Below the pieces are notes generated by a model, which did no database searches, had not been told where the DNA came from, and saw only the letters and a list, made by a program, of their open reading frames with translations. The translations under genes were made by a program, and so were the position numbers. Below, one piece after another: positions 1,337-55,639 of a stretch of 64,000 nucleotides of DNA (the stretch's first letter is position 1; each line of letters opens with the position of its first letter). The stretch comes from an uncultured virus (IMG/VR IMGVR_UViG_3300006789_000015) (lineage: Duplodnaviria; Heunggongvirae; Uroviricota; Caudoviricetes): the IMG/VR virus record IMGVR_UViG_3300006789_000015; one strand, 5' to 3'.

Positions 1337-1798
1337 TTATGGATTTGTGTGCAGGGTTGCGGTTGCTTTGGGTAAATTGGTGACGTAGTTGTGGCAGCGT
1401 TGAGCTTCCAGATCAAACGACCACATAACCTCTTTCCATTCTATTCCGTGGTCTTTCGTTTTACCTAATCCATGAAGCTTATCTGTAAGGAGGTGTGCGT
1501 ATTCGTGTCCGATGGTGTTTTTAAGATAATCTTCTTCGTTATTGACCAATAAGGGCAAGTTAACCCGAATGATGTTCGGCCAAATCGCTTGGCCTCCGCA
1601 CTTTCCTTTAAGATCGTATTTAACGTGAGGTTTGAGTTGTTTGCCCCATTGCCTTTGGCCTAGCCGCATTAAGAACTCCAGCCTCTCTTGTATCTTTCCG
1701 TCGATTGATAAGTTCATTCTCTGTCTCTGTCTATGTATAAAAGCCAACAGCCTATTAAGACGATTAGGATACAAGTCATACAGCCTCTCCGATTTCAA
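1337..1798 (-). CDS. SprT-like zinc metalloprotease
   Basis: NTIGHEYAH, HGIEWKEVM and RCH motifs. Confidence 0.85.
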   Translation of the reverse strand: MKSERLYDLYPNRLNRLLAFIHRQRQRMNLSIDGKIQERLEFLMRLGQRQWGKQLKPHVKYDLKGKCGGQAIWPNIIRVNLPLLVNNEEDYLKNTIGHEYAHLLTDKLHGLGKTKDHGIEWKEVMWSFDLEAQRCHNYVTNLPKATATLHTNP

Positions 1799-2186
1799 CG
1801 GCGACTGTATATTCGTGATAGTTCCCGCTCAAGGAAAAACATCCCTTTATCCTCGCTATCTTCTCCACTTGCTCCAACGCCCATTCCGCAGCAAGGGTAC
1901 GTCCAGCACCACTCTGCCCCTTAAAGACCATCTTCTTACGCTCGTAAGACCAATCATCTATCCTCGCTAAATAGACATTTGTGTAAGCGCGGATAAGACC
2001 ATCTTTATCCGTCCAGAAATACGCTTTGTTGGCGTGAATCCAGTTGAGGGAACCATTGGTGGCTCCAGTGTTATAGAATAGATAGTACCATTCCTGTATC
2101 GTCTCCTTGGAGTCATGCTCCAAGAAAAACGCCATCCTGTACCCATTGTGTTGGTACGACATTGTTGGTGTTCGTCCCGCATCCAT
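1776..2186 (-). CDS. hypothetical protein
   Basis: 136 aa ORF directly behind a promoter. Confidence 0.7.
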   Translation of the reverse strand: MDAGRTPTMSYQHNGYRMAFFLEHDSKETIQEWYYLFYNTGATNGSLNWIHANKAYFWTDKDGLIRAYTNVYLARIDDWSYERKKMVFKGQSGAGRTLAAEWALEQVEKIARIKGCFSLSGNYHEYTVAVEIGEAV

Positions 2187-2411: not shown

Positions 2412-2452
2412 AAAAAAAGAAAAAGACCCGAAAGACTTTCGCCCTCCGGGTC
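2412..2452 (-). terminator. intrinsic terminator
   Basis: GACCCGGAGGGC-GAAA-GUCUUUCGGGUC 12-bp stem (3 G-U) then U-tract. Confidence 0.85.
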
Positions 2453-2492
2453 GATGGGATGGATATGGATGTATGCTTACCTCCGTAGAGGT
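2412..2492 (-). ncRNA. candidate ~80-nt small RNA
   Basis: Promoter TTGACA(2525-2520)-N16-TAATTT; 5' hairpin ACCUC-UACG-GAGGU; CAUCC-repeat linker; terminator. Confidence 0.6.
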
Positions 2493-2514
2493 ATGTTAAA
2501 TTAAGGTTATATAT

Positions 2515-2634
2515 TTAGATGTCAACTGTACCAGAGGATTTTTTTTGCCACCAAGTAAAAGCGGGATATGACAATGCGTATAGTATAAAACCAGCAATGC
2601 AAAGAATAAAAAATAATAAAGCCAAGACAAACAT
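2515..2634 (-). CDS. 39-aa hydrophobic membrane peptide (below ORF-track cutoff)
   Basis: MFVLALLFFILCIAGFILYALSYPAFTWWQKKSSGTVDI*; GGGGG upstream. Confidence 0.45.
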   Translation of the reverse strand: MFVLALLFFILCIAGFILYALSYPAFTWWQKKSSGTVDI

Positions 2635-7756: not shown

Positions 7757-7761
7757 ATTAA

Positions 7762-29173: not shown

Positions 29174-29582
29174 ATATGATAAAATGCAAGAAAGCTTATT
29201 GAAAGCTATACGACACCAAACGTATTGCAAAATAGCCCCGTCAAAAATCCACGGAGTAGGAGTATTCGCTATAAAACATATACCTATTAATATAGACCCA
29301 TTTAAAGAGTACCCTCAAGGCTCAGAAACCATATTTAAAGTAGAGCATGATTTACTAAAAGATATTGACCCAACTTTAAAAAAATACATCTACCAAATGT
29401 ATGTTAATGATCCTGAATATATTTATCTAGAAAATATATCTCCAAATAATTTACCAATATATTATCGCATGAACCACTCTAATGACCCAAACATCGCTTG
29501 GGATCATAAGAAGAGAAGCTTTAAATCTGTTAAAGGTATAAACGTGGAAGAAGAATTGCTATTGGATTATGACAAGTATTAA
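29151..29582 (+). CDS. SET-domain protein methyltransferase
   Basis: SKIHGVGVFA, NHSNDPN, EELLLDY. Confidence 0.85.
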   Translation: MIIIFMNKYDKMQESLLKAIRHQTYCKIAPSKIHGVGVFAIKHIPINIDPFKEYPQGSETIFKVEHDLLKDIDPTLKKYIYQMYVNDPEYIYLENISPNNLPIYYRMNHSNDPNIAWDHKKRSFKSVKGINVEEELLLDYDKY

Positions 29583-30430
29583 AGTTTAATATTAAATTCT
29601 TCAAGATATTTATTTCTATCCACTTGGTTATTTCTGTCAACACAAGCTTTTAGGATATAACTCTTCATGTAACAGTCCCGCATTTGAAAAAGTAAAGATT
29701 CTGAATCTTTAGGAAAACATTTTCCCCCAAAACCTCTTTTCCCGTCTGGACCGGGAACTTCGGTATGATCGTGACCTATTCTTTCATCTAAGCCTATGCA
29801 GTGAGCTATTGTTTCAAAGTTTAAATCTTTCTTTTTGCAAAATTCATTTAGCTCATTAAAATAACTAACCTTTAAAGCTAAGAAGCTGTTCCTAGCTAAT
29901 TTTACAGCTTCTGCCGACTCGGTAGAGACAACGTGAATAATATTACTCTTTATTTTATTATTTTCGTAAGCTAAGTCCATTAAAGCTTTAAAAATATCAA
30001 GTGATCCTGCGGTAGAAAACGGCCCTTTATTAATACCCAAAATCCAATCTTTATTATTTACAAAGTCCTCTCTCCAATTCGCTTCAGTAAGAAACTCTGG
30101 CATAAAATTAACACCAAGACGTTTACAAGTCCCTACGGGAACCGTTGATCTTACGATTATATTTTCCAAAGGTACAAGATACCCTTTCAATTCTTCCACC
30201 ACGGATTCTACTATACTAGTATCACAAGAGCCGTCTTCATTAGCGGGGGTAGGAACGCAAACAAAAATTAGAGAGCAACAAGCCAACTCTTTCATGTTAA
30301 GTCCCAAAGGGATACTTTTATCGGGGTCTTTATCATACGTAAAGACTTTAACCCCTTCGCACTCTAATAAAGAGGTAGCTGAACCGACAAAGCCCCCACC
30401 AATAACGCCAACCTGTATTAAGTTACTCAT
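29579..30430 (-). CDS. UDP-glucose/GDP-mannose dehydrogenase family (short form)
   Basis: GGGFVG, CVPTP, RSTVPVG, PEFL.E, GFGGKCFPKD. Confidence 0.88.
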   Translation of the reverse strand: MSNLIQVGVIGGGFVGSATSLLECEGVKVFTYDKDPDKSIPLGLNMKELACCSLIFVCVPTPANEDGSCDTSIVESVVEELKGYLVPLENIIVRSTVPVGTCKRLGVNFMPEFLTEANWREDFVNNKDWILGINKGPFSTAGSLDIFKALMDLAYENNKIKSNIIHVVSTESAEAVKLARNSFLALKVSYFNELNEFCKKKDLNFETIAHCIGLDERIGHDHTEVPGPDGKRGFGGKCFPKDSESLLFQMRDCYMKSYILKACVDRNNQVDRNKYLEEFNIKL

Positions 30431-38756: not shown

Positions 38757-39249
38757 TAGCTTTATAACCGCTATCTATCTGTTTAATCATGTCTAAGGCT
38801 TCATCTATGCTATTGTAAATGTAATGATGTGGAAGCATACCCATAATCCATAAGGGCGTTTTTTCTTTTCCCCCCTCCATAGAAATGAAAATGGGCTTCT
38901 TCATTCTAACTGCTGTAACAAGCTCTTCTGCGCTTCCCCAACTCGCAACTTCAGGAAGTAAGTGAGCTATAATAAAATCACTTCTATCAACAAGATTTAA
39001 ATCATAACTACGTACCACACTCATTCTTTCAGCCACGTCATTATAATAGCCATTAACCATATCGTCAGCCATCTTTGTTCTAGCAGATTCATCTTCATTA
39101 ACATCTTTAACAAATGGCTTTTTATAAGGATTAAAAACGGTAATATTTAAAGGCTCTAATTCTTTCTCAACATCGTCCCTCCAGTTGCGACCATCAGCGT
39201 ATTGCATATGCCCCACTAAATAAGTTCTAGTTTTATCTAACACGTTCAT
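38713..39249 (-). CDS. nucleoside 2-deoxyribosyltransferase-like protein
   Basis: YLVGHM, WR, FNP, DL..VDRSD, SWGSAEE. Confidence 0.65.
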   Translation of the reverse strand: MNVLDKTRTYLVGHMQYADGRNWRDDVEKELEPLNITVFNPYKKPFVKDVNEDESARTKMADDMVNGYYNDVAERMSVVRSYDLNLVDRSDFIIAHLLPEVASWGSAEELVTAVRMKKPIFISMEGGKEKTPLWIMGMLPHHYIYNSIDEALDMIKQIDSGYKAIDSDRWRLLRHELR

Positions 39250-40112
39250 ACATTATCCTTATATTTTTTCTCAAACATCGCTTTTAGTTTTTTTAAAGCT
39301 ATTCCCTCAATCTGCCTAATTCTTTCTCTTGTTACGTTATGCCTTCTCCCTATAACTTCAAGAGTTTCTTGATCGTGGTTTTCTAAGCCGAAACGGTACA
39401 TTAAAATGTCATATTCTCTTTCCGTCAAATCCTTTAAAAGTGACTTTAAATTTCTAACATCCTCCTGTTTAGAAATAAACTCTTCTACACTCGGAACTTT
39501 ATCATCCTCGACAACTTCGGCATAGCTTTTTTCCGTTTTGCCATTGCCCGAATCTTGAAAAAAATCATCTAAAGACTTTGGGGTAGAAACTGTATCTAAA
39601 ATTGTAGAAATACGAATCTCACTAAGATTTAACTTTTCACTTATCTCTTGAGTAGATGGCTCTCTATCAAAATTTTTTTTATAAAAATTAATCAATCTCG
39701 TTATTTTATTATAATCATCAAAAGCTCCGCAGGGCAATCTTATAAGTCGAGACTTATTAGTTAAAGCTCTGTAAATTGACTGCTTGATCCAGAAAGAGGA
39801 ATAGTAAGAAAGCTTGGTCTTCTTTCCCAGTTTATATTTTTCCACGGCCTTCATTAAGCCCAGATTTCCCTCGTTAACTAAATCTTCTAGAGGTAACCCG
39901 CATCCTTGAAAATTTTTAGCTATTTTTACCACCAGCCTCAAATTAGAATTAATTAACTTCTCCCTTATTATATTTTTAGACCTACCTCTGGCCGTTTGAA
40001 AATTTTTTAATAGCCTCGCCTCTTCGTCTGGAGAAAGAAGCGGGTATTTACTAATATTTTGATAGTATGAGTCTAAGATAGATTGGCTGCAGTCCAAATG
40101 CTTTTCATCCAT
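39246..40112 (-). CDS. RNA polymerase sigma-70 family factor (RpoD/RpoS-like)
   Basis: NLRLVVKIAK, DLVNEGNLGLMKAVEKY, WIKQ, TRERIRQIE; promoter TTGACT-N17-TATTTT 8 nt before ATG. Confidence 0.93.
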   Translation of the reverse strand: MDEKHLDCSQSILDSYYQNISKYPLLSPDEEARLLKNFQTARGRSKNIIREKLINSNLRLVVKIAKNFQGCGLPLEDLVNEGNLGLMKAVEKYKLGKKTKLSYYSSFWIKQSIYRALTNKSRLIRLPCGAFDDYNKITRLINFYKKNFDREPSTQEISEKLNLSEIRISTILDTVSTPKSLDDFFQDSGNGKTEKSYAEVVEDDKVPSVEEFISKQEDVRNLKSLLKDLTEREYDILMYRFGLENHDQETLEVIGRRHNVTRERIRQIEGIALKKLKAMFEKKYKDNV

Positions 40113-40695: not shown

Positions 40696-40926
40696 ATGGA
40701 TATGCTTACCTATAGGGAAATTTTGTCTGTTATCGCAAAGATGGAGGAGGAATATCTAAATGTAAAAAAAGACGAAAATTCAAGTCATCATCAAAAGAAA
40801 CACGCTCATCAAGCAATATTTGTTTTAGCTAGAGTGGATAAAAAAATGAGAGAAGCAATCCAATCAAAATTTAAAAAGGGAGAAAAAAATGGAGAAAATA
40901 AAAAAAATTTTTGGAGCTTTTGGTAA
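40696..40926 (+). CDS. hypothetical protein
   Basis: GTGTA motif upstream. Confidence 0.6.
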   Translation: MDMLTYREILSVIAKMEEEYLNVKKDENSSHHQKKHAHQAIFVLARVDKKMREAIQSKFKKGEKNGENKKNFWSFW

Positions 40927-43430: not shown

Positions 43431-43769
43431 GTGGGAAATTTAAATTTAATTATTGCTGCAGAATTAAGTTCTGATCCACCCTCTGAAGGTTTATACTTCA
43501 GATTTATCACAATGGTCGCTAAAACAGACCTAAATTATGAAGTCGTAATAGAGTCAGAAAAGGAAATGGTTGATAATTATTATAATTTTTTAAAAAAGAA
43601 AGGGTGGTACGATTTCGTAGACGATATCATCTTACCAGAGTGGAGGGTAGAGGGGGTAAGGATTGATACAGAAAATAATTACCCTTTAACTATTAAAACT
43701 CCATATATTAGGTGTGAGAATACCCCAAATCTCTTAGGACAAATTAACTCTATTAGAGATTTTGTTTAG
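43431..43769 (+). CDS. hypothetical protein
   Basis: GTGTA-N9-GTG. Confidence 0.65.
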   Translation: MGNLNLIIAAELSSDPPSEGLYFRFITMVAKTDLNYEVVIESEKEMVDNYYNFLKKKGWYDFVDDIILPEWRVEGVRIDTENNYPLTIKTPYIRCENTPNLLGQINSIRDFV

Positions 43770-44552
43770 TAATATTTGGAAGTTCGGGCTATTGTATTTA
43801 TTATCAATAACTTCTTTTACTTCGTCGGGTAAATGATCCATATATCGACGATTAAGATAAAAATTTTTATCAAAAGGGGTCTTGGTTTTTATTAACCCCA
43901 TGTCAGTAGATGCTTGAATCACTTTATCTTCATCTACATAACCTTTATGTTTTTTAGTTAATTTAAATTTAGATTCAAGCTGAGATAAAATTTTATTTTT
44001 ATCTCGTATTAAGTCTTCGTATTGAATGAAAATCGAATTATCCTTATTACCCTCAAAAAGCTCCACCCACCTTCTGTAATTGAGCTCGTAACGATTGCAC
44101 CATCGTCTAACCCATCCATTTTTCAAAACGTCTTCCCAATCCAATCTTCTATGCCTAAACCTTTTAAAGCTATAAACGAACCCATAGATATCTTTTATCA
44201 TAAAAATATAATTAAGGTTGTCACAAGCATAATTAAGTTCATCCGCGCTAAAAGGTAATACGTAATTGTCCACACAAAGCACTTGTCCTTCTAGTAAAGG
44301 TTTAGCGGTTTTAGGATCAATACCTTTAGACATTTTTCTAACCCAATCCTTATGGCTTTCAGCTTCAAATTCGGGAAAGGTTTTAAGGTTATTCATGTAC
44401 CACCTCTCCTTATAATTTGAAACTTCATACATCCCGTGCTTCCACCCTAGAACACTTGCAAAAACAGTCGCCTCTTCAAAGTTTAGCTCAAGTAAACTTT
44501 TTAAATAATTAGTTCCTGTTCTTTGTTCTCCGTACTGTTTAAAATATTTCAT
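43734..44552 (-). CDS. sulfotransferase-like protein
   Basis: GEQRTGTNYL PAPS loop, GWKHG, IQYEDL. Confidence 0.7.
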   Translation of the reverse strand: MKYFKQYGEQRTGTNYLKSLLELNFEEATVFASVLGWKHGMYEVSNYKERWYMNNLKTFPEFEAESHKDWVRKMSKGIDPKTAKPLLEGQVLCVDNYVLPFSADELNYACDNLNYIFMIKDIYGFVYSFKRFRHRRLDWEDVLKNGWVRRWCNRYELNYRRWVELFEGNKDNSIFIQYEDLIRDKNKILSQLESKFKLTKKHKGYVDEDKVIQASTDMGLIKTKTPFDKNFYLNRRYMDHLPDEVKEVIDNKYNSPNFQILLNKISNRVNLS

Positions 44553-45607
44553 AAGGGAAATGGAAGCTTCTTTCTAGTTTCGTCATAATTACCTATTATA
44601 TCTCCGTCACTATTAACATAAATATATCTATCTTCATCAACCATTAAATCATGACCGACGTCTTTCCATTGAGATTTTTGATTTGGCCCATAAGACCAAG
44701 GGCCATCTCTTGTAATTGGAAAATATATTTCTGTCGCTTCAGATAAATAAGCGGCCATCCAACTCCAAGAACTTTGAGTAATAGCGACTTTATTAAATAG
44801 CCTTATAAAATTAAAAGTCTTAATCTCTGGCGGTTCTGAATGGGATAAAAAAATAGGATTATATTTATAGAGCGGTTGTAAAATTTCGTGAAAGGGCCAC
44901 TCAGAACAAATAAATAAACTTTTAAAATGAATTTTATCTAAGAGGGGTAAAAAATAATCAGACAAAACTCTTCTATTCCTAAACTGCCCATAGGTATAAT
45001 CTGGCCCAAGCCTTATGTTAAGAAGTAAGTCATCCTCATGTATTTTAGGGGTATGAATTTCCGTAAATCTATCATCGCCCACCCTAAAGGGGGTGGATGA
45101 AGTAGGTCTATGGCCATTTTTATCTACAATATGCCATCCATCAGGATAACGTGGGTACTCTTGAGAGACGTCTGTGTAGTATTTGTCATCATACCTCTTT
45201 CCTTTTTTTATTTCCTCATGATCCCAATTAATAATTTTAAAAGTTAAACCTTTTAAGTTGTCTCTCGAAAAAGGTTGATCCATGTACATCCAGTCATTCT
45301 TAATTTCGTTAGAATAATTTTTATAAAAAGGATAATACTCTAGGAAAGACCTTACGATAAATTTACAATCTGTTTGCCTTCTTAAATCTTCTACTTCTAC
45401 TCTATGCTTATGATTTTTTTCTGAAATTTCATAAACAGGATCATGAAATCTTTTACCTTCTAAATTCCAATCTCCAGAATTGTCTAAATATCTTATCTTG
45501 GGGCATTTTACATAATAATCTAGTTCTGCAGCCAAGCATCTACCAAAACAATATTGAATTACTTCATTGCCCCACCCGCAATTCCAATCTAAATCACAAT
45601 GAATCAT
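44549..45607 (-). CDS. GT11 alpha-1,2-fucosyltransferase-like
   Basis: GWGN..QY, IRLG.DY, SSWSWMAAYLS. Confidence 0.65.
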   Translation of the reverse strand: MIHCDLDWNCGWGNEVIQYCFGRCLAAELDYYVKCPKIRYLDNSGDWNLEGKRFHDPVYEISEKNHKHRVEVEDLRRQTDCKFIVRSFLEYYPFYKNYSNEIKNDWMYMDQPFSRDNLKGLTFKIINWDHEEIKKGKRYDDKYYTDVSQEYPRYPDGWHIVDKNGHRPTSSTPFRVGDDRFTEIHTPKIHEDDLLLNIRLGPDYTYGQFRNRRVLSDYFLPLLDKIHFKSLFICSEWPFHEILQPLYKYNPIFLSHSEPPEIKTFNFIRLFNKVAITQSSWSWMAAYLSEATEIYFPITRDGPWSYGPNQKSQWKDVGHDLMVDEDRYIYVNSDGDIIGNYDETRKKLPFPL

Positions 45608-46980
45608 TTTAAGCCATTTAAAACTAAAGAATTCAGAGCAGGTCCAGATTTAATTACAGCTAAAATAAATTCACCACTTTCCCTGTACCCGTCACCCTCA
45701 TTGAAAGGAACTGTTATTATCTCTCCACCCCAATAGTCAGCGCATTGTCTAACGACCATAGATTCTGCTCTATGTGGGCCTCCAAGTCTAATTCCAGTAT
45801 GACCACTATCAGCAGCGACTACGATAACCCCTTTAAAATCTTTATTTGAAATTAATTTTCTTATTAAATAATCATTATCTTTATAGCCTTCGTCTGGCCA
45901 AAAGTAATAAACTTCAGCCAAAGGAACATCTTCGTTTCTGTAATCTAAAGCTCTGATATCTAGACCTCTTTTTTTAGCGACTTCATATCTCTCCTCTTTG
46001 TTATCAAACCCAAACACTTTCTTAGCGTAACGTGACAAAAACACCATATTGTCTCCTTCAGCACACCCCAACTCACAAACCGTCTTATCCCGAATAATAT
46101 CTTTGATAGCGTGAGAAACTGCTTCTGGAGAACGAAAGGGACATTTCGAAAAAATATTATGTGGAGTTGGGGAAGGCTTTTTGCCTTCTCCAGCTTTTTC
46201 GTCAACGTATTTACTTTTATATATATCCAATAGCTCCTTGTGGCTCATAATATAGTGCCGAAAAATAACGGATAACAGTTCACGGTTAAGTCCCTGTTTG
46301 ATTTCAGATAATTCAGCAGCAATGGAAATTTCGTGACATACATTTTCCATTTGAAGACCCAATTTTCTGGTGTTTTCTGAAACAAGAGCCCAATTATTTA
46401 TAAAATTTTGTATTTTCTCCTTGGTAGAGGTTAAAACAAGCGCGGCTTCAAATGGCATTTTAAAATCTACCCAACTAAAACTTAAATCCATTTCATCTTT
46501 TAAAGCTTCAAGCTTGGGGGTAAATGTCACATCTTCCTCTTTCTTAGGAATCTCACCCCCAAAACCTGAAGCTGGATACCAACTGCCGCACCATAAACCT
46601 TCATGCTCACATTTATTTATAACGTCCCAATCCCAGACTCTAATTATCATGTCCATATCAATAAAACAGATATTTTCATGACCACGATCTAGACAAGCTT
46701 GAAAACAGAATCTTTTTAAAGAATAGTCAAACTTATAAACGGTTCCAGTTCCTACAGTTTTATTAGAATCTATATGACCATACGTTTCTTTAGTTAAGGG
46801 TACTGCTGTAAAGTCTGGATGATCAAAGTCTTTATAATAATCCAAGTCATCGACCACAAGAATAAGCTTAGGTCGATCTACTTCACACTTTTCAACCCAA
46901 GAGTCATAAAAAAGTTTAGAAAATTTTCTATACTTTTCTCCTACAACTAAAGAGGTAATACAAAAGTTTTCTCTCATCAC
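45604..46980 (-). CDS. glycosyltransferase-like + methyltransferase fusion
   Basis: FIDMD DxD in N-half; ELGCAEGD in C-half. Confidence 0.6.
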   Translation of the reverse strand: MMRENFCITSLVVGEKYRKFSKLFYDSWVEKCEVDRPKLILVVDDLDYYKDFDHPDFTAVPLTKETYGHIDSNKTVGTGTVYKFDYSLKRFCFQACLDRGHENICFIDMDMIIRVWDWDVINKCEHEGLWCGSWYPASGFGGEIPKKEEDVTFTPKLEALKDEMDLSFSWVDFKMPFEAALVLTSTKEKIQNFINNWALVSENTRKLGLQMENVCHEISIAAELSEIKQGLNRELLSVIFRHYIMSHKELLDIYKSKYVDEKAGEGKKPSPTPHNIFSKCPFRSPEAVSHAIKDIIRDKTVCELGCAEGDNMVFLSRYAKKVFGFDNKEERYEVAKKRGLDIRALDYRNEDVPLAEVYYFWPDEGYKDNDYLIRKLISNKDFKGVIVVAADSGHTGIRLGGPHRAESMVVRQCADYWGGEIITVPFNEGDGYRESGEFILAVIKSGPALNSLVLNGLK

Positions 46981-48305
46981 GAAACTACAGCAGTGTTCCT
47001 AAGAGTTCCTTTGATTTGCTCTTGCCACCCCTTTGACTTACTATGTGGCCAGACTATGTAACTTACGGGCGGATTTTTTTCATCTGCCAAGAATTTTCTC
47101 CACACTTTGCAGTATCCGTCAGGATCATTTTTCATTCTTTCTATTTCTCTTGGTCCAGCGTCCTGCCTGTGTAAATCTTTTCCGTCCTTATCTTTATAAA
47201 CGACACACCAAAAGTCGTAATCGTCTAGAGGAACTCTCTTGTACCCAACGTCGATACAATGTTTAAAAATCCTCAAGAAAGAACCTTCCCACTCTTCTTC
47301 AGTATCGTAAACTTCTGGATTGGGCGGCTCTTTGTGTTCTTCGGTCCACTGTTGAATGGCTCTTTTCTTAAAGTGAAGACCGGCATATTTTTCATAATCT
47401 CTTAATGTTCTAACTGTACCGAATCCATACTTACCATCTTTTCTGGGAGCCTCTCCATCCATCCCAAATAAAGCTCTATTTCTTTGATGACATTCTTTAT
47501 TTAATTTTCCCCAACCTTTGGAGTCATCCCAATGCTTAGAGCGACCTTTCCTTGTGTACTCATGCCAAGCTATAATTTTATGAGGATAAAATAAATCGTA
47601 CCCATGAGTATAAGCTCTAACAGCTATGCTAATTTCTTCTCCATGAAAGTAATAATCAGGGTCATGTTGAACTTCTACAGAAAATTGACCTAAAGTAAAA
47701 GCAAAGTGGGCAGAGTAAAATCTAGCTCTAACAGGCTTTTTTCTAGTCTTCCAATCTTTAATAGATTGAGGTAAAAAGAAAACGGCCCCTTCAGGAATAA
47801 ATCTATCGAAGGTCATTTCCCAAGGCTCTTTAGCTCTACCTTCGGGGTCATTATCTGGGTCAAATGAAGGTATGTACCCCGTAAGTAAAGGCTTCTCGTA
47901 ACCATCTTTTTGAAGGTCTTTCAACATATCAATAGAAATTGTATCCCAGCCTTTGACAAATCTATGGTGAGAGTCTATTTGTAGGGTGTATTCCTCATCT
48001 TGATACTGTTGTTGAACAGACCACCTCGCCCAACAAACGCCTTTAGCTTTATCCCAATCAACATCAAGGATTCTAAATCTGGAGTCTCCCCTCCATTTAT
48101 CTAAAGTGTCGAACTTATCGTCAGGATGAAACTGTCTACAAATACTAAAGACTAAATTTTCTGGTTTATCCGCTTGATCAATAGCGTCTTGGATAGTGCT
48201 CTCTAAGAGAGGGTCTCTATAACTAGCTATCTGAATAAAAATTTTACCGTTGCCAGAGGGCTTAATTTTTCTCGATTGTCTTCTTCTTTGTCTAGCGTTG
48301 CTCAT
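46977..48305 (-). CDS. GT60 (Skp1-hydroxyproline GlcNAc-transferase-like)
   Basis: IASYRD, GVCWAR, LQIDSH.RF..GWD, FHGEE. Confidence 0.8.
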   Translation of the reverse strand: MSNARQRRRQSRKIKPSGNGKIFIQIASYRDPLLESTIQDAIDQADKPENLVFSICRQFHPDDKFDTLDKWRGDSRFRILDVDWDKAKGVCWARWSVQQQYQDEEYTLQIDSHHRFVKGWDTISIDMLKDLQKDGYEKPLLTGYIPSFDPDNDPEGRAKEPWEMTFDRFIPEGAVFFLPQSIKDWKTRKKPVRARFYSAHFAFTLGQFSVEVQHDPDYYFHGEEISIAVRAYTHGYDLFYPHKIIAWHEYTRKGRSKHWDDSKGWGKLNKECHQRNRALFGMDGEAPRKDGKYGFGTVRTLRDYEKYAGLHFKKRAIQQWTEEHKEPPNPEVYDTEEEWEGSFLRIFKHCIDVGYKRVPLDDYDFWCVVYKDKDGKDLHRQDAGPREIERMKNDPDGYCKVWRKFLADEKNPPVSYIVWPHSKSKGWQEQIKGTLRNTAVVS

Positions 48306-48335
48306 TTTTTAAAAAGTGTTTTTAAATAGCGATTA

Positions 48336-49280
48336 TTATTTATAATTATAAAACTTTACAGTTTCTTCCAGTCCAGATATTAAATCAGTTTTTGGCTCCC
48401 AGTTCAACTCTTTTTTTATTTTTGTATTATCTATTGCGTATCTGAAATCGTGACCCTTTCTGTCTTCGACAAAGGATATATAATCGTCAGGATTAACTTC
48501 CATTACTTCACATATTTTATGAACCATTTCAAGATTAGTTTTTTCGCAATCAGAACCAATCAAATACGTCTCTGAATCTTTCCCTCTGGTAAGTATTTCC
48601 CAAATTGCCTCACAATGATCATCTACGTAAATCCAATCTCTAATATTAGCCCCTTTTCCATAAATAGGAATCATTTCTCCATTTCTTATAGAATTTATCA
48701 CTACTGGAATAAATTTTTCTTTATGCTGCCTTGGGCCGTAATTATTACTACAATTTGATAACGTGAAAGGTAAGCCAAACGTATTTCCATAAGCTCTTAC
48801 GAGCATATCACTTCCTGCTTTTGTCGCAGAGTAGGGATTTTGAGGGTCGTAAGGTGTTTGCTCTGTAAATTTTCCAGAATCTCCTAGAGCTCCGTAAACT
48901 TCATCAGTAGAGATGTGATGATACCTTTCAACTCCGCTATCTCTACACACCTCTAAAAGATTAAAGGTTCCTATTAAATTAGTTTTAATAAAAGCCTCTG
49001 GACCTTTTATCGAATTGTCTACGTGTGACTCGGCAGCAAAATGAACTACGTGAGTTATATTATATTTTTCAAAAACAAATTTAACATCTTGTCCCCTACT
49101 TAAGTCTAATTTTGCCAAACTATACTTAGGAGAATAGCTTACGTCTTTTAAGTTGTCTAAATCGGCGGCGTAAGTTAAGGAATCAAGATTAATAATTTGA
49201 CTAACTTCTGGCTTATTTATAATTAAATTTATAAAATTAGAACCAATAAAGCCACAGCCACCTGTTACTAGTATATTCAT
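48336..49280 (-). CDS. rmlB: dTDP-glucose 4,6-dehydratase
   Basis: TGGCGFIGS, HFAAESHVD, STDEVYG, YSATK, DRKGHDFRY. Confidence 0.95.
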   Translation of the reverse strand: MNILVTGGCGFIGSNFINLIINKPEVSQIINLDSLTYAADLDNLKDVSYSPKYSLAKLDLSRGQDVKFVFEKYNITHVVHFAAESHVDNSIKGPEAFIKTNLIGTFNLLEVCRDSGVERYHHISTDEVYGALGDSGKFTEQTPYDPQNPYSATKAGSDMLVRAYGNTFGLPFTLSNCSNNYGPRQHKEKFIPVVINSIRNGEMIPIYGKGANIRDWIYVDDHCEAIWEILTRGKDSETYLIGSDCEKTNLEMVHKICEVMEVNPDDYISFVEDRKGHDFRYAIDNTKIKKELNWEPKTDLISGLEETVKFYNYK

Positions 49281-49281
49281 A

Positions 49282-50067
49282 TTATGATACCTTTATGTTA
49301 AATGCTTCTTCACTATGCCACCCTTTTAATCTTTTTCCTAATTGATCGTCGAACCAGCCTTTATATTGTCCAGTTAAGCCGTTCCAGCAACAATTTCCCC
49401 ACGCCTTAAACATCGCGTCATAAATTGAAGCGTCCAAATCTCTAGTTTGTGGATATGGAAATTTTCCGATTTTCACGAACTCCTCTCTTCTCCAAGAAAC
49501 TTGAGTGCTATCAATATTGCAATATGGATTTATACACTCGCTCCTATTTAAAGGAAAGTCAGGATATCTGTCCCCAACATCAATCCTCCTTATCTCTTTA
49601 AGTTTAGCAACTTTTTCTGGATCATACTCTATAAGGTGACAGTAAGAATATTTAATAGCTAGATTTTTAATGTAAAAATTTTTTAAATTCATTAAGTAGT
49701 CCTGCAATAAGGCGTCATCATCACACAGCATAATGCTAATGTCTGAGTCAGATTCTATCATTGCTTGATTAGCGAATTTTCCAAATATCGAATGCCCATT
49801 TTCTCGAATGTTACCCGTTTTATAAACTTTTATTTTATCTAAAAAATTAATTTTTTCTCCATAATAATTCGGAGCGTTAACGTAGTCAGAGTTTTCGCTT
49901 AAAAGTTCTTCTATAATTTTGTTACCATTTTGCTTTGTGCTATCATCAATAAAGCTTAATTCCCAGTTAGGGTAACTAGACTGTAAAACGCTTTTTAAAG
50001 CAAACGTCTTAGCCATTTCGGGCCTATCGTAATAAAAAAATAAAATTTGGATTTTTAAATCTTTCAC
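49282..50067 (-). CDS. GT2-like glycosyltransferase
   Basis: SVL.SSY.NWEL..IDD, LCDDD. Confidence 0.7.
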   Translation of the reverse strand: MKDLKIQILFFYYDRPEMAKTFALKSVLQSSYPNWELSFIDDSTKQNGNKIIEELLSENSDYVNAPNYYGEKINFLDKIKVYKTGNIRENGHSIFGKFANQAMIESDSDISIMLCDDDALLQDYLMNLKNFYIKNLAIKYSYCHLIEYDPEKVAKLKEIRRIDVGDRYPDFPLNRSECINPYCNIDSTQVSWRREEFVKIGKFPYPQTRDLDASIYDAMFKAWGNCCWNGLTGQYKGWFDDQLGKRLKGWHSEEAFNIKVS

Positions 50068-50549
50068 AGGTCTCTTCTCATCACTATGCTAACTAAACCG
50101 TTTTCCAGAACGTACTTTTTCGTTTCAATAAATCCCAACTTTAAATATAAAGAGTGAGCTATTTTGTTTTTTTCCAAGACTTCTAAGTCCACCTCTTTAT
50201 AATTATTATTTTTTAAAAAGTCAAACAATTTAAGATAAGAAGGTCTTGCTAAACCCTGCCCCCTAAAATCAGGGTGTATATCCATTCCAATTCTAATTTT
50301 ATCTTTAGAATCTGTGCGACACGTTCTAAAGTAGCCAAAATCTAATTTTCTGTAAGAAGCAATAAGCCAATAAGGAGAATCGTTTTCGTACCAAGAGTTA
50401 AATTGGTCTAAAGTGTATTGATCTGAATTATGTAGTACAAATCTAGTGGAGTCATCATTCCTAATCTCTAAAATGAATTTACCGTCAGATTTTTTTATCT
50501 CACGAATTTCGATATCTTCTTTATCTTTCATTCTGAGTATGGAGGCCAA
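50064..50549 (-). CDS. GNAT acetyltransferase
   Basis: IHPDFRGQGLA, N..A..LY.KLGF. Confidence 0.85.
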   Translation of the reverse strand: MASILRMKDKEDIEIREIKKSDGKFILEIRNDDSTRFVLHNSDQYTLDQFNSWYENDSPYWLIASYRKLDFGYFRTCRTDSKDKIRIGMDIHPDFRGQGLARPSYLKLFDFLKNNNYKEVDLEVLEKNKIAHSLYLKLGFIETKKYVLENGLVSIVMRRDL

Positions 50550-51256
50550 ATTGGGGCTAATAAAATTTCATTTTCCGAGCTCCCGTATCCCACTATCGAA
50601 GACCTATAATTTAAAAACGGAACATAATATTTTTCAGTAATATCTTTTATCTTATACCCCTTTTCAACATACCTGTCTAAAAAGCGAGACTGATTCCACT
50701 CTGCTTTACCATAATCTCCACCTGCTCCGCATAAATTAAATCCCTCTTTATACTCTTTAAAATGATCTTCAAAAATCTTATTTTTAATCATCCCGTTAGC
50801 AATCGCACAATGCCACTTTCCTATAATTTGATTCGTGTAAAACTGACAAATATAAAAAATATCGTCCTCGTCAAAAAGTTCTAAAAATTTTTTATCATAA
50901 TTCTCAGAAACAGGAATATAATCATCCTCCATAAGGATAGAATAATCGTACTCACCAACGAATTCTTTAAGTGCAAAATCCCAAGCCCCATAAGAATAAT
51001 CAAGGTTTTCTCTGACCATTGTCGTAATATTACAGTTTGTATTTTCTGTATGAATACTTATTAACTCAATAGCTTCGTCAAGCAGGGCGTCCCGTCCATG
51101 AGTATTGAAAACAAATATAAAATCCTTAACAGAATTAGGCACACTTTTTGTGGCCTCCAAATGTTTTTTTAAAAAGAAAAGTCGGTCGCTTTTATATAAA
51201 GGATTTTCAACTCTTCTAGCCCCAAGGTAAAAATTAACTATTTGTGCTATTCTCAT
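50528..51256 (-). CDS. GT-like hypothetical protein
   Basis: N.DYSYGAW, LMEDDY. Confidence 0.5.
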   Translation of the reverse strand: MRIAQIVNFYLGARRVENPLYKSDRLFFLKKHLEATKSVPNSVKDFIFVFNTHGRDALLDEAIELISIHTENTNCNITTMVRENLDYSYGAWDFALKEFVGEYDYSILMEDDYIPVSENYDKKFLELFDEDDIFYICQFYTNQIIGKWHCAIANGMIKNKIFEDHFKEYKEGFNLCGAGGDYGKAEWNQSRFLDRYVEKGYKIKDITEKYYVPFLNYRSSIVGYGSSENEILLAPIWPPYSE

Positions 51257-51975
51257 GCAGGAAGATCGGAAAAATGGACCGTTTTAATGTCATTATCTTT
51301 AATAAATTTACATATTTTCTCTAATTTTTCAATCTCATAATCACGAGCAAAAACGTGACCATTAGTAATACAAAAAGAATCTTCTGGGGCATTTTCTACC
51401 GCGCTTTTAAAAAGATCGAAAGATAAGTTGTCGCAAAACATAGCGCAGCATTTAACAAAAAAAGGGTCGGTTTCTTTAGGTTTATAGTAATGGCCCTCAT
51501 CCCTCTCCCAAGTCTGGGGGTTATTATCAAGATGATGATCATAGCCGGGAGCTTTTTCAAAATATCCAATCCTTCCCAGCTTATACCCTAGCTCCGTTAA
51601 TGCTCCCCTAATTTCTTCCCTAGACTTATTTATAACGTAGCCCGGATAAGAAAAAACGGGAGCTACCTCTACCCCTAATGAAGATAATTTATCTTCAGTC
51701 TTTAAAAAGTTGTCACGTATCTCAGGAAGGGTAGACTCGGCAATGTGGATGTGATTAAAAGTATGATTGCCTATTTCGAAACCCCTTTTATAAAGGTCTA
51801 CGATTTGTTCATCAGTCATGTCAGAGACTTGATACCCATGAATTCCCCTCCATAAATTTAAATTACTACCATTAATAAAAAAAGTGCAACTGATACCATA
51901 CTTTTCAAACATGGGAGCAATTATTTCATGATGAGTGGATACATCATCATCAAATGTAAAAGCTATACCCTTCAA
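51253..51975 (-). CDS. polysaccharide deacetylase
   Basis: FTFDD, TFFING, EIGNHT..H, FSYPG. Confidence 0.85.
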   Translation of the reverse strand: MKGIAFTFDDDVSTHHEIIAPMFEKYGISCTFFINGSNLNLWRGIHGYQVSDMTDEQIVDLYKRGFEIGNHTFNHIHIAESTLPEIRDNFLKTEDKLSSLGVEVAPVFSYPGYVINKSREEIRGALTELGYKLGRIGYFEKAPGYDHHLDNNPQTWERDEGHYYKPKETDPFFVKCCAMFCDNLSFDLFKSAVENAPEDSFCITNGHVFARDYEIEKLEKICKFIKDNDIKTVHFSDLPA

Positions 51976-52157
51976 AGTCTTTCTTTTTCCTCCATCTCCT
52001 TTTGTCTCTTTCTCCTCATGTAATCCCTTTTTTGCTTCCTCCTTCTTTCTGGGTCTCTTTTGTCATATGCGCTTCTAGCTTTTTTTAAAGCTTTTTTTCC
52101 CTTTTCGGTCTCAAAATATTTTTCGTGTTTTTCTGCCATCTTTAGTATATCGTCCAC
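51972..52157 (-). CDS. small basic protein
   Basis: Arg/Lys-rich ORF. Confidence 0.5.
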   Translation of the reverse strand: MDDILKMAEKHEKYFETEKGKKALKKARSAYDKRDPERRRKQKRDYMRRKRQKEMEEKERL

Positions 52158-52199
52158 TTATGCGAGAGCTTTTTCTGGGGGGTAAAATTTCGTTTTTTT

Positions 52200-52898
52200 T
52201 TATTCTTTATATATTTCTGAAGCGAAAACTCCTTTTAACCCTTTCGGATTTACGGACACAATTTCTACGTCAGGATACTCTTTATCTTTAAACTCTTTAA
52301 ACTCTATCCAGTTCCAGTAAATATCGTCTCTCCAAGGGACGTTAGATACCAAATAAGAATTACCCCCTCCGCAATCACAACCGACCAAATATATTTTTTT
52401 AATGCCAGAGTATAACAAAACCTGCAAAGGAGGAAAAACTATACTATGATTATATAAAGGAGACTCCATATCTTTGCTAAAGTTATGGCTACCTTTAGCG
52501 GTAGAAAGTTCGTAAGGAATACCATTCATTTCTTTACGTTCATCTTCTGTAAAAAATTCTATATTATATCTTCCATCTAACTTTGAGCAACAGAACACTT
52601 GCATGTCGTTACAGCGTTCTTTTATTTTCTCGAAAAGAGGAACAGTTAATAACATGCTAGAACCATTTACCGCCTTGTGAGGATGATCGATTGGTTCTTT
52701 AGCTACATCGTGAGCGCAAAAATAATAGTCTAAATCTATATCATTCTTATAAATAAAAGAATTAACTCCGACCTTTACTAATTCTTCAAGGCTCTCTGGA
52801 ATTAAAGAGGGGGTAAATTCGTTAAGTGAAGGTCCAGTTGCAAATAAAATTGCAAACTTACCCTCATTAACATTTTTGAAATCTTTAAGATGCTCCAC
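52200..52898 (-). CDS. MptE/Maf (DUF115)-like transferase
   Basis: ATGPSL, GVN, IYLVGCD. Confidence 0.65.
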   Translation of the reverse strand: MEHLKDFKNVNEGKFAILFATGPSLNEFTPSLIPESLEELVKVGVNSFIYKNDIDLDYYFCAHDVAKEPIDHPHKAVNGSSMLLTVPLFEKIKERCNDMQVFCCSKLDGRYNIEFFTEDERKEMNGIPYELSTAKGSHNFSKDMESPLYNHSIVFPPLQVLLYSGIKKIYLVGCDCGGGNSYLVSNVPWRDDIYWNWIEFKEFKDKEYPDVEIVSVNPKGLKGVFASEIYKE

Positions 52899-53235
52899 CG
52901 CAATTTTCCCTTTTAATATCTTTTTCTAAAAGCTCTACCCAATAAATTTCATAGGCAACCGTATCTTCTAACGCTTCAAAAGTGTGATATTCTTTAGGGG
53001 GAACTGTAGTAGCTTCACCTGTAGAGATTATGGTTTCGTCTACTAAATCATAATCGTTTTTCCATGCGGTAATTTTTAACTTGCCGGACTCTACATAAAA
53101 TAAATTGTGTTTATATTCGTGACAGTGCTTAGAGCAGTATCCGCCTTTAGCTGTCTCTATTCTATGAATCTCTACATTATTCTTAAAAAATAATGGTCGA
53201 GTATTGCCCCAGACTTTTCCTTGTATTGAATTCAT
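52885..53235 (-). CDS. cupin-domain protein
   Basis: KVWG, CSKH.H, FYVESG, H.FEALED. Confidence 0.75.
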   Translation of the reverse strand: MNSIQGKVWGNTRPLFFKNNVEIHRIETAKGGYCSKHCHEYKHNLFYVESGKLKITAWKNDYDLVDETIISTGEATTVPPKEYHTFEALEDTVAYEIYWVELLEKDIKRENCGGAS

Positions 53236-53750
53236 TTTTTACAAACTTTAAAGTGTCCTACATCGGTACAATGGTAAGCAATTTCGTATCCTGAAAAACT
53301 TTCTCTCATTCTATTTGCCCACCACTCTGGAGCTTGTACTGTCTTATGAGCATTACTTCCGTCAGGTAGGATAGCGTGTGCTAGTCTGTGACTTACTATA
53401 TGGTACATGCTTACGGGCTTAAGTTTTAACATGTCAGAAAAAATAAAATCTATTTCATCTTCGTATAGGTGCTCTAACACATCAGTAGTAATAATCATGT
53501 CATAATTATCTAAAGGAATTGTTTCTTTCCCTTTAATTGCAGGATCATAACTGTGGACTTTTGCTTGTAGCTGTGACCTGACTATTAAATCGGACAAAGC
53601 TCCCTTACCGCATCCGTAATCCAATACTACTTTAGGGTTTTTGTCTAGAATAAAATCTGCTATCTCCTTAAAATAGACTCCTCCACTAGCTCCATAGTCT
53701 TGATTTTGCAAGTGTAGCTGTTTATATAATTCAATATCTTTGGTATCCAT
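53232..53750 (-). CDS. class I SAM methyltransferase
   Basis: VLDYGCGKG, YDP, DVLEH, NAH. Confidence 0.8.
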   Translation of the reverse strand: MDTKDIELYKQLHLQNQDYGASGGVYFKEIADFILDKNPKVVLDYGCGKGALSDLIVRSQLQAKVHSYDPAIKGKETIPLDNYDMIITTDVLEHLYEDEIDFIFSDMLKLKPVSMYHIVSHRLAHAILPDGSNAHKTVQAPEWWANRMRESFSGYEIAYHCTDVGHFKVCKK

Positions 53751-53751
53751 T

Positions 53752-54480
53752 TTAACTATATACTTCTCTACTGTTCTTATCGCGGAACATGCCCTTTAAG
53801 CCTATCGGATTTACGGAAACTAATTCAACTTCAGGATATTCTTCTTCACGAAAGTCTCTAAAGTCACGCCACTGACCAATCTTATATCCATTTAACGCCA
53901 ACCTCCAAGCGGGAGCTTCTGGCATCAAGTAAGATTTTCCGCCGCTAGAATCGCACCCAACCAAATATATTTTAGTCACGCCAACGTATAATAGAAACTG
54001 TAAAGCTGGAAAAGAAATACTGTGGTTGAATAAAGGGCCAGAAGAAATGTCTTTTCTAAAACGTTTTGCCCCAAGGCGCGAGTCAAGCTCGTAAGTCTCA
54101 GCATTCATTCGCTCTATTTCTTCGTCATTAAAAAGTTCATGGTGACGTTTTCCATCCACAGAATAAGCACAAAAAACCTTCACCTTGTCACATTTCTCAA
54201 GGATTTTATCAAAAAGGGGCGTTTTAAGTAAAATCTCGGGAGCATCATCAGATTTATGAGGGTGGTCGCTAGGCTCTTTTGCTACATCTTGAGCACAAAA
54301 ATAATAGTCCAAATCAACATCGTCTTTGTAAATGAATGAATTTACTCCAACCTTTACTACATCTTCTAAAGGCTCATCTAATAAATTTGGGGTAAATTGA
54401 TTTAAGGAAGGGCCAGTTGCAAACAAGACTCCTGATTTCCCTTTGTGAATGTTTTTATATTTGCCACTAATCATTACCAC
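53752..54480 (-). CDS. MptE/Maf (DUF115)-like transferase
   Basis: Close paralog of 52200..52898. Confidence 0.65.
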   Translation of the reverse strand: MVMISGKYKNIHKGKSGVLFATGPSLNQFTPNLLDEPLEDVVKVGVNSFIYKDDVDLDYYFCAQDVAKEPSDHPHKSDDAPEILLKTPLFDKILEKCDKVKVFCAYSVDGKRHHELFNDEEIERMNAETYELDSRLGAKRFRKDISSGPLFNHSISFPALQFLLYVGVTKIYLVGCDSSGGKSYLMPEAPAWRLALNGYKIGQWRDFRDFREEEYPEVELVSVNPIGLKGMFRDKNSREVYS

Positions 54481-55637
54481 CCCTTCTTAATACAATCCAC
54501 AATATACTGCCTTTGCTCCTCTGTCACCCACCAACCCACAGGAATAGAAATAAGCTTAGGAACAATTTTATCTAATGAAGGTAAGCAACTCTTAAATTCA
54601 CTAACGCAAGTATGGCCATCGTTTCTTTCGTGAACTTGGCTTACCATAATATTACACTCCCTCATCCAATCCATAAAATCGCTTTTATTTTCTACAAGTA
54701 GACTGTATATCCAAAAAGAAGACTGTCTATCTTCTTTCCTTTCTAACAATGTCACGCCATTTACATTAGATAACTCTCTATCATAAAATGCCGCATTACT
54801 CCTATGTTTAGAAATTATTTCATCAGCGTAATTTAAATTTTCTAAACCAATAGACGCCGCTATATCATTCATATGAAACTTGTAACCCCATTCTTCAATG
54901 TCGGCTTCGCATCTAAAATCTTTTTTATTATTTTCTCTGTCTATACCGTACCAGCGAATTACTTTTGCTCTATCGTGATAATATTTTTCGGGAGAAATAA
55001 GTATTCCTCCGTCCCCAGTGGTTATATGTTTAATCGCTTGGAAGCTGAATGTGCAAAAATTACCATGATTGCCTATCTTTTTCCCCTTATAGGTAGAGCC
55101 AAGAGAATGGGCGCAGTCTTCGATAACCATAGGCTTAAACCCGTACATCTCTTGAGCTTTTTCCTGTATCCTCTTAACTCTATCCAAATCTATAGGATAA
55201 CCACCCCAATGAACGAGCATCATAGCTTTAGTTTTCGGGGATATTTTTCTTTCTAAATCGTCAAGGTCTACGTTTAAATTATTACTATCTATATCAACCC
55301 ACTTAATTTTTAAATTGTTTGCTAGAGTGGGCCAATTAGAAGCAGTACAAGTCAAAGGGGAAGAAAGTACTTCGTCGCCATCTTTTAAACCGCCCCATTC
55401 TCCATGAGGCTTTTTTAATAAATGTAATGCCAAATGTTCTGCGGAAGTGGCAGCATTCGTGGTTGCCACATACTCACTCTTAAACCAATTTTTTAATTTA
55501 GATTCAAATAGGTCTACCTTCGGCCCTTGACCAATGAAGCCGCTACTTAATACTTCAGAAACTTTCTCTGCCGCCGACTCAGCCATGAAAACTTTAAACA
55601 GCGGGATACAATCTTTAGAAAAAAAAGACTTTTTCAT
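54474..55637 (-). CDS. DegT/DnrJ/EryC1/StrS sugar aminotransferase
   Basis: VHWGG, IEDCAH, FSFQAIKHITTGDGG. Confidence 0.92.
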   Translation of the reverse strand: MKKSFFSKDCIPLFKVFMAESAAEKVSEVLSSGFIGQGPKVDLFESKLKNWFKSEYVATTNAATSAEHLALHLLKKPHGEWGGLKDGDEVLSSPLTCTASNWPTLANNLKIKWVDIDSNNLNVDLDDLERKISPKTKAMMLVHWGGYPIDLDRVKRIQEKAQEMYGFKPMVIEDCAHSLGSTYKGKKIGNHGNFCTFSFQAIKHITTGDGGILISPEKYYHDRAKVIRWYGIDRENNKKDFRCEADIEEWGYKFHMNDIAASIGLENLNYADEIISKHRSNAAFYDRELSNVNGVTLLERKEDRQSSFWIYSLLVENKSDFMDWMRECNIMVSQVHERNDGHTCVSEFKSCLPSLDKIVPKLISIPVGWWVTEEQRQYIVDCIKKGW

Positions 55638-55639
55638 AA

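Follow-up and report, generated by a model that had tools for sequence, protein, structure and literature searches.

The minus strand of the 64,000-nt stretch of DNA analysed here (the window; IMG/VR record IMGVR_UViG_3300006789_000015, an uncultured virus of the Caudoviricetes) carries at 2525-2412 an element that is probably the gene of a new phage small RNA (sRNA). Read from 2525 to 2412, it consists of a promoter, a hairpin, an open linker and an intrinsic terminator, and we consider it likely that a discrete functional RNA is encoded there. The full proposition, that this is a small RNA gene whose linker represses leaderless early starts, has in our judgement an even chance of being correct; the repressor role is one that we infer from the complementarity of the linker to such starts, which is short in this phage and exact in a sister clade.

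The promoter, the C(UNCG)G hairpin at the predicted start, the unpaired linker and the GAAA-capped terminator with G-U pairs that an earlier note on this DNA had picked out were all recovered in the sequence and in the fold (Table 1). Folding adds a U-A pair to the 5′ hairpin (UACCUC-UACG-GAGGUA, 2493-2478), and this hairpin begins at the predicted 5′ end of the RNA. When the 83 nt are folded alone, the outcome is exactly the hairpin-linker-terminator structure, with a minimum free energy (MFE) of -30 kcal/mol and 0.79 of the ensemble; the z-score of the fold is -4.92, and none of 200 shuffled sequences folds as well. The terminator is the top-ranked one of our terminator scan and the strongest within the first 8 kb, while the hairpin is the single C(UNCG)G hairpin with a stem of at least 5 bp on the minus strand of the window. 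As the note had also stated, there is no open reading frame (ORF) inside, at least none of 20 aa or more on the minus strand, and an antisense 45-aa frame (2362-2499) is disrupted by a 5-nt insertion in the natural variant X8. The note had proposed an Rfam search; run over the whole window with Rfam 15 at the gathering threshold, it returned two tRNAs only and placed 2525-2412 in no family. Two families that align weakly over the terminator and an AUCCAU-like stretch, sbrA (RF01489; 23.9 bits against a gathering threshold of 45) and SdsR/RyeB (RF00111; 18.4 bits against 38), were rejected as homes for the element.

The core of the element is conserved in X8, a variant from a marine run whose contig spans 1803-2657 and differs from the window by 25 substitutions and three insertions or deletions. 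None of these changes falls within 2449-2517, the 69 nt that comprise the promoter spacer, the -10 element, the hairpin and the linker. On one side, 2390-2448 has eight substitutions and the 5-nt insertion; on the other, 2518-2626 has 16 substitutions, one insertion and one deletion. With flanks that diverge by about 15%, we estimate the probability of 69 unchanged bases at about 2 in 100,000. The terminator is strand-specific: the three changes in its stem (2435, 2446 and 2448) turn a G-U into a G-C pair, a G-U into an A-U pair and a C-G into a U-G pair, so that minus-strand pairing is kept at all three, and the last of them would break the pair on the opposite strand. Past the stem, the U-tract has a C-to-U change and the tail, which holds the 5-nt insertion, has diverged.

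Judged by its sequence, the site at 2525 fits the phage's own promoter class, with the +1 placed at the foot of the hairpin. The pattern TTGAC[AT]-N16-18-TAnnnT occurs at 10 sites on the minus (coding) strand, where 200 shuffles give 3.3 ± 1.9 and never more than 9; on the plus strand there are two sites, with 2.6 in shuffles. Six intergenic sites of this class precede tRNAs or promoter-fused genes: they stand either before a tRNA pair or with a start codon 6-8 nt past the -10, which makes for leaderless messages at 2186, 26877, 40112 and 60165. Listed by promoter, sites of the form TTGACT-N17-TAnnnT lie 6-8 nt before ATG at 2221, 26913, 40149 and 60202 (minus strand), with weaker ones at 62896 and 63236. 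The promoter-fused leaderless messages of the window, described here as early, include that of the phage's sigma-70-family factor.

Comparison of sequences across relatives indicates that the phage group has conserved a small RNA gene at this position. Relatives of the RuvB-like protein encoded upstream fall into six at 73-83% identity (P0002-P0007) and then hundreds at 52-58%; the metagenome loci that we compared are the same phage twice (L003 and L004), in which the element is unchanged, and relatives at up to 58%, with the 73-83% group left out. Four distinct sequences (L083-L086), whose RuvB-like gene is 53-56% identical to that of the window, form a sister clade that has an sRNA unit in common at the same place and on the same strand, with a conserved promoter whose +1 falls at the hairpin base. 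The covariation check that the earlier note had suggested could be run on these: across both helices 76 of 76 cells are paired and five pairs are altered on both sides, and no change is seen in 17 bases of the linker, GUUCGUUCAUCAUCAUC. Of the five measures of covariation, four are attained by 0 of 500 shuffles and the range over all five is 0-11; slid controls have 49-65% of cells paired. In L086 and L125 the unit runs from TTGAAT-N17-TAATAT, with the +1 at the base of the 5′ hairpin, through the linker (A/G)GUUCGUUCAUCAUCAUCGA and a long GAAA-loop terminator stem to AAATAA repeats. In the more distant locus L114, GUUCGUUCAU is displayed in a hairpin loop behind TTGACA-N17-TAATAT.

The sister-clade RNA (L083-L086 and L125; covariance model R2) and the window RNA occupy the same position and strand, with the RuvB-like gene and a small gene upstream and AAATAA repeats downstream. 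Both are about 75-83 nt long, with a sigma-70-type promoter and a +1 at the base of the 5′ hairpin; both have a G-poor linker of CAU or CAUC repeats that ends in CAUCGA, and the terminator of both has a long stem capped by GAAA or a comparable A-rich loop. Complementarity of the linker to AUG-proximal bases of leaderless genes may be a further common trait, although in the window the pairing energies are modest. They differ in the sequences of the linker, GUUCGUUCAUCAUCAUCGA in the sister clade, and of the hairpin, in the 39-aa ORF that stands additionally in front of the unit in the window, and in the length of the target matches, which is 7-9 nt in the window and 11-14 in the sister clade.

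For the sister-clade linker, the complementarity to leaderless starts is exact. In G005, a complete record, the reverse complement of the linker stands at the very start of promoter-fused genes, over 12 nt at 122242, 11 nt at 126499 and 126305, 9 nt at 118284 and 8 nt at 127837. Five of the 25 promoter-fused starts of this genome match the linker over at least 8 nt from the AUG, and none of 5000 linker shuffles achieves this. At 123315, the start of the orthologue of the window's 136-aa gene (2186) forms 14 bp, one of them G-U, with the sRNA of its own genome, at -20 kcal/mol. The 11-mer ATGATGAACGA has three to four copies in each of four genomes, a number that includes the copy within the RNA gene, and its reversed control has 0-1. 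Duplexes of the linker with the orthologous starts have energies of -20.0, -19.9, -17.8 and -4.0 kcal/mol across the four genomes. When G-U pairs are tolerated, 10-mer matches in G005 show no overall excess (109 against 180 ± 129 in shuffles). The 25 promoter-fused sites of G005 lie nearly all on one strand.

In the window the same pattern appears in shorter form. The earlier note had read the linker as antisense to AUGGAU starts at 40112, 7756 and 2186 and had reported 11 + 5 nt of pairing across the start of the gene at 40696. CAUCCAU is indeed complementary to AUGGAUG at 2186 and 40112, a match of 9 nt lies at 7758, and the plus-strand ORF at 40696 can pair in two registers, one with 11 and 5 nt on either side of a 2-nt bulge, the other with 9 nt. 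We considered nine leaderless or near-leaderless starts, seven taken from the promoter pattern and two belonging to plus-strand genes with a TAGTGT-like element near the AUG. Three of the nine (2186, 40112 and 40696) are complementary to the linker over at least 7 nt from the A of the AUG, a number reached by 0-2 of 5000 linker shuffles, and the same prefix match occurs in 4 of 73 other ATG starts. When the whole RNA was cofolded with 224 initiation regions, 11 reached a net energy of at most -14, whereas 36 linker shuffles gave 3.7 ± 2.0 such regions and 8 at the most; among the duplexes with these regions, 40696 ranks sixth of 224 and is thereby not singled out.

Taken together, these features suggest the following course of events. 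A host-type RNA polymerase would start at about 2494-2491 from the promoter in the last codons of the 39-aa membrane-peptide gene and release an RNA of about 80 nt at the GAAA-capped terminator; as this terminator is common to the upstream operon, the RNA could equally be cut from that 3′ untranslated region (3′-UTR). The very stable 5′ hairpin and the terminator would make the RNA long-lived. Its open CAU-rich linker would pair with the 5′-terminal AUG region of leaderless or near-leaderless phage mRNAs, with the 136-aa gene (2186), the sigma-factor gene (40112) and the 76-aa gene (40696) as candidate targets, and would block the entry of 70S ribosomes. A leaderless mRNA has little beyond its terminal AUG to offer to the ribosome. 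As the stable RNA accumulates, the early target genes would be shut down.

Table 1. Positions of the predicted parts of the 2525-2412 unit, of its immediate neighbours and of the candidate target starts in the window
Feature	Position	Strand	Remarks
-35 element TTGACA	2525-2520	minus	overlaps last codons (GTT GAC ATC) of the upstream 39-aa ORF; unchanged in X8
-10 element TAATTT	2503-2498	minus	16-nt spacer from the -35; unchanged in X8
predicted +1	about 2494-2491	minus	from promoter position
5′ hairpin ACCUC-UACG-GAGGU, C(UACG)G tetraloop	2492-2479	minus	7-9 bases past the -10; unchanged in X8
unpaired G-poor linker AAGCAUACAUCCAUAUCCAUCCCAUC	2478-2453	minus	25-26 nt; candidate seed
linker AGCAUACAUCCAUAUCCAUCCCAUC, five CAU triplets	2477-2453	minus	unpaired in MFE and centroid structures; unchanged in X8
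intrinsic terminator GACCCGGAGGGC-GAAA-GUCUUUCGGGUC	2452-2425	minus	12 bp including 3 G-U pairs, GAAA loop
U-tract UUUUUCUUUUUUU	2424-2412	minus	follows the terminator stem
AAATAA-type A+T-rich repeats	2411-2340	minus	directly past the terminator; similar repeats after the sister-clade sRNA gene
upstream 39-aa hydrophobic ORF (MFVLALLFFILCIAGFILY...)	2637-2515	minus	own promoter-like site 2684-2657; shares the element's terminator
TTGACT-N17-TAGTGT promoter and leaderless AUGGAUG start of 136-aa gene (2186..1776)	2221-2180	minus	candidate target, 7 nt
TTGACT-N17-TATTTT promoter and AUGGAUG start of sigma-70-family gene (40112..39246)	40149-40106	minus	candidate target, 7-8 nt
start of 76-aa ORF AUGGAUAUGCUUACCU	40696-40711	plus	candidate target; 16 nt with 2-nt bulge, or 9 nt in another register

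A number of observations weigh against this interpretation, some of them bearing on the gene and others on its targets. TAATTT makes a weak -10 element, with three of its six bases as in TATAAT, and the promoter filter of our terminator scan passed over the 2525 site for this reason. X8 is also identical to the window over 1803-2249, and in a mosaic genome the invariant core could be a recombination patch. Among the 20 runs listed with the locus none is RNA, and no transcript, 5′ end or 3′ end was seen in them. In the closest relatives compared, L005 and L006 (58%), the corresponding position has a GAAA-loop terminator behind a short run poor in G (UUCCAU...) and lacks the 5′ hairpin; aligning the window unit with them gave A+T-rich, unconvincing matches only. 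Scanning for terminators with G-poor sequence in front of them brought up no look-alike, and the first candidate came from a covariance model of the window RNA (R1), which gave a weak match, with an E-value of 0.7, in L086 and L125 exactly at the syntenic place, and the sister-clade model R2 found nothing at 2412-2494 in the window at E-values up to 10. Neither model links the two RNAs significantly, so that their homology is argued from place and build alone. The interpretation of the earlier note is partly supported as a whole; for its view of the unit as a self-contained sRNA gene, the enriched promoter class, the invariant core and the covarying counterpart are real support.

Concerning the targets, the pairings in the window are short, 7-9 nt, or 16 with a bulge at 40696, and the starts at 2186, 40112 and 40696 share ATGGAT and are therefore not independent. 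The best single cofold energy, -18.0, is equalled or beaten in 12 of the 36 shuffles; cofolding with shuffled controls found more strong regions than expected and no outstanding target. At -10.8, the pairing of the window linker with its own 2186 start has no advantage over that of non-cognate linkers, among which the one from G005 reaches -16.5. The complementarity at 40696, present as claimed, is absent from the homologous gene in G005, and the sigma-factor homologue of G005 lacks a matching start sequence. GGAUG is common in the phage's messages generally (CATCC 126 times, 83 expected), and the gene at 7756 has an ordinary leader. As a pattern, the antisense relation of the linker to AUGGAU starts is supported, and it is strong in the sister clade. 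A sliding duplex scan of the whole window gave loopy, uninformative matches, a G005-type seed with two mismatches allowed occurs 14 times in the window against 14.0 expected, and past the window ends there is a single further ATGGATG start, of uncertain status. Exact 19-mer matches of the linker at 4 viral and 10 genome loci lie in unrelated sequence, antisense to a D-G-M-D-M-D coding stretch, and were set aside as chance. The best match to the 3′ part of the linker, 10 nt in GAUGGAUGGGAUGG, falls at 38540-38523 (minus strand) in a 210-nt spacer before the gene at 38501 and precedes a 4-codon frame, not a gene start.

These weak pairings, with equal best targets in a third of the shuffles and no advantage of the cognate linker, leave room for a genuine sRNA with other duties, namely to act on host mRNAs or to titrate an RNA-binding protein of host or phage or a host sRNA. 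All that speaks for an sRNA gene (the fold, the variant, the promoter class and the sister-clade covariation) applies to it as well, and our target search covered phage sequences only. We nevertheless regard it as unlikely: in the sister clade the linker matches leaderless starts of the phage itself in exact antisense, and the three of nine leaderless starts that match from the AUG in the window go beyond what shuffles give. CsrA-type sponges show a GGA motif in hairpin loops, and the loops here, UACG and GAAA, display none, which may speak against a sponge of this type; the earlier note had mentioned a sponge role as an alternative.

It is rather unlikely, in our view, that a separate RNA function is lacking and that the unit is merely the terminator of an operon of the RuvB-like, 133-aa and 39-aa genes, its C(UACG)G hairpin a 3′-UTR stabiliser and its TTGACA incidental. 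Stabilising hairpins of the C(UNCG)G type are common between the genes of T4, the unit lies directly behind an ORF, and the weak -10, the hairpin-free terminator of L005 and L006 and the lack of RNA among the listed runs would all suit such an arrangement. A mere terminator sits less well, however, with 69 nt of spacer, -10, hairpin and linker that stay invariant between diverged flanks, with a +1 that falls exactly at the hairpin base both in the window and in the sister clade, where the promoter is conserved, and with the enrichment of the promoter class on the coding strand. The terminator also ends the message of the 39-aa ORF, so the small RNA would come from its own promoter, by processing, or both.

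We think it very improbable that selection acts on the DNA instead, with the CATCC/ATCCAT repeats as protein sites and a short transcript that serves the adjoining A+T-rich spacer as part of a replication origin. Replication-type genes adjoin the element, AAATAA repeats follow the terminator in the window and in the sister clade, a perfect TGTGGATAA, which we take to be the DnaA-box consensus, lies at 2238-2230, and L086 has three copies of AATGATCGACAAA. A strong terminator stands between the promoter and the A+T-rich stretch, however, the G-U pairs and the pair-keeping stem changes point to selection on RNA, and by our own estimate one such 9-mer is expected about 0.5 times per window by chance. 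Least probable of all, and hardly to be credited, is an origin as a gene cassette in decay or as a minute unit for a protein or leader peptide (promoter and Shine-Dalgarno hairpin, with the ORF lost or read from a rare start), for which the GGAGGU in the 3′ arm of the hairpin and a 28-codon frame in L086, from a 5′ AUG through the terminator, could be cited, and which is contradicted by the lack of any ATG, GTG or TTG past the Shine-Dalgarno sequence and of any ORF of at least 20 aa, by the missing AUG in L083-L085, by a downstream gene with its own promoter 190 nt further on and by the single copy of the element in the window, unlike PeSL-type modules.

Three known classes were also tried and rejected. 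A PeSL-type cassette does not fit, as the module occurs once in the 64 kb and the minus strand has a single C(UNCG)G hairpin. A leader-peptide or translation-coupled attenuator would need an ATG, GTG or TTG ORF, which is lacking; the next gene has its own fused promoter at 2221, and the L086 AUG is not conserved. For a type I toxin-antitoxin pair, hand inspection showed that only about 5 bp could form with the region around the start of the 39-aa ORF, a region that ranks 15th with a loopy duplex.

If the 2525-2412 element is a small RNA that pairs with leaderless starts, it has partial parallels among known systems. The CI RNA of P4 belongs with the phage antisense RNAs that have their own promoter and terminator. 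The window RNA resembles lambda OOP, P22 sar, c4 and P4 CI in being short (about 70-80 nt) and phage-encoded, and those RNAs pair with phage mRNAs at or near translation starts and set the timing of expression. A review (PMC12197685) lists lambda OOP, P22 sar and P1/P7 c4 among antisense RNAs of this kind. OOP and sar are cis-antisense, lying opposite their target, whereas the window RNA is encoded in trans; c4 and CI are processed immunity RNAs of temperate phages, whereas the window RNA belongs to a large, probably lytic phage and, unlike all four, would address 5′-terminal start codons.

In enterobacteria, MicL and DapZ are sRNAs that derive from 3′ ends of protein-coding genes and are transcribed from a promoter within the ORF. 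As in the window RNA, that promoter runs into the end of the ORF upstream, and the sRNA has its terminator and U tail in common with the mRNA; they differ in being Hfq-dependent host RNAs with established targets. T4-type phages offer extra-stable C(UUCG)G hairpins between genes and the PeSL promoter-stem-loop cassettes, which, like our unit, place a UNCG tetraloop hairpin beside an early-type promoter, and the window phage has T4-like rII genes. Unlike PeSL, the module is unrepeated in 64 kb, and its hairpin is followed by a terminator, not by a gene.

To our knowledge, few trans-acting small RNAs have been described in lytic or large environmental phages. A literature search at the level of titles and abstracts, together with the available portion of the review PMC12197685, brought up no phage RNA aimed at leaderless 5′ ends. 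An RNA that covers the terminal AUG would, if real, be a minimal and easily retargeted switch. Seed and start would go together by lineage, with CAUCAUCAU/GUUCGUUC and AUGAUGAACGA in one and CAUCCAU and AUGGAUG in the window phage. It is possible, if doubtful, that this marine phage lineage keeps at a fixed place an sRNA antisense to leaderless AUG regions whose seed and starts drift together, as a timer that would turn off a set of leaderless early genes, the phage's own sigma factor among them, by masking the one signal that such messages present to ribosomes. This would provide a testable mechanism of early-gene shut-off in an abundant group of uncultured marine phages, a case of a seed and its targets changing together, and a compact natural design (stable 5′ hairpin, open seed, terminator) open to reuse. 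Should the interpretation fail, the locus would still illustrate cleanly how a promoter can lie concealed within the final codons of a gene for a micro-protein.

The window belongs to a large phage that is known from marine metagenomes only. Its genes include rIIA, rIIB, a sigma-70-family sigma factor, thymidylate synthase and a block of sugar-nucleotide genes. The nearest record, G001, is the same phage and spans 41530-64000 only. We found no near relative among deposited phages, no DNA match in the phage collection, no match of an exact 22-mer in viral contigs, and no relatives in those contigs when two neighbouring genes were used as single-protein queries. The order on the minus strand is a RuvB-like AAA+ ATPase (3905-2964), a 133-aa ORF, the 39-aa ORF, the element, about 190 nt of A+T-rich repeats and the 136-aa gene.

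The hydrophobic micro-protein of 39 aa (MFVLALLFFILCIAGFILYALSYPAFTWWQKKSSGTVDI) is found neither in L005 and L006 nor in the sister clade, and its gene looks like an inserted cassette as far as such comparisons go. In X8 its frame and length are kept through six amino-acid changes and a compensating insertion and deletion, which indicates a real gene. The A+T-rich spacer (2411-2222, minus strand) bears AAATAA(G) repeats that are common to the relatives, with a counterpart at 4850-5190 in L086, where the AATGATCGACAAA copies lie about 300 nt downstream. A near copy of TGTGGATAA stands at 2251-2241, beside the perfect one. On these sequence features, the spacer past the terminator may be a replication origin.

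Other regulatory sequences were noted along the way. A (T)AGTGTAA-like motif lies 6-10 nt before the start codons at 27466 and 40696 (plus strand) and 2186 (minus strand) and is kept before the G005 homologues (68431 and 150449 in that genome); it may mark a separate promoter class, perhaps one read with the phage's own sigma factor. At 127077-130165 of G005 (locus L178), four copies of a hairpin (GGTAGGAC...GTCCCACC) combined with an extended -10 (TGnTATACT) stand about 6 nt before ATGAT... starts. The minus strand of the window has a second ORF-less unit that runs from promoter to U-tract, at 27062-26918, with TTGACG-N17-TATTTT directly past a stop codon and then about 105 nt, the two ends of which form 15 bp (AUAGUUGCGUCUUCU with AGAAGACGCAACUAU), before UUUUUU; its fold has a z-score of -5.7, and it has no Rfam match.

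Finally, the sugar genes form a long run on the minus strand (43700-58800) of sugar-nucleotide and glycosylation functions, with a glycosyltransferase, two epimerase-like genes and an aminotransferase, and a UDP-glucose dehydrogenase-like gene lies further off at 29579-30430, a sugar cargo that is unusual for a phage.

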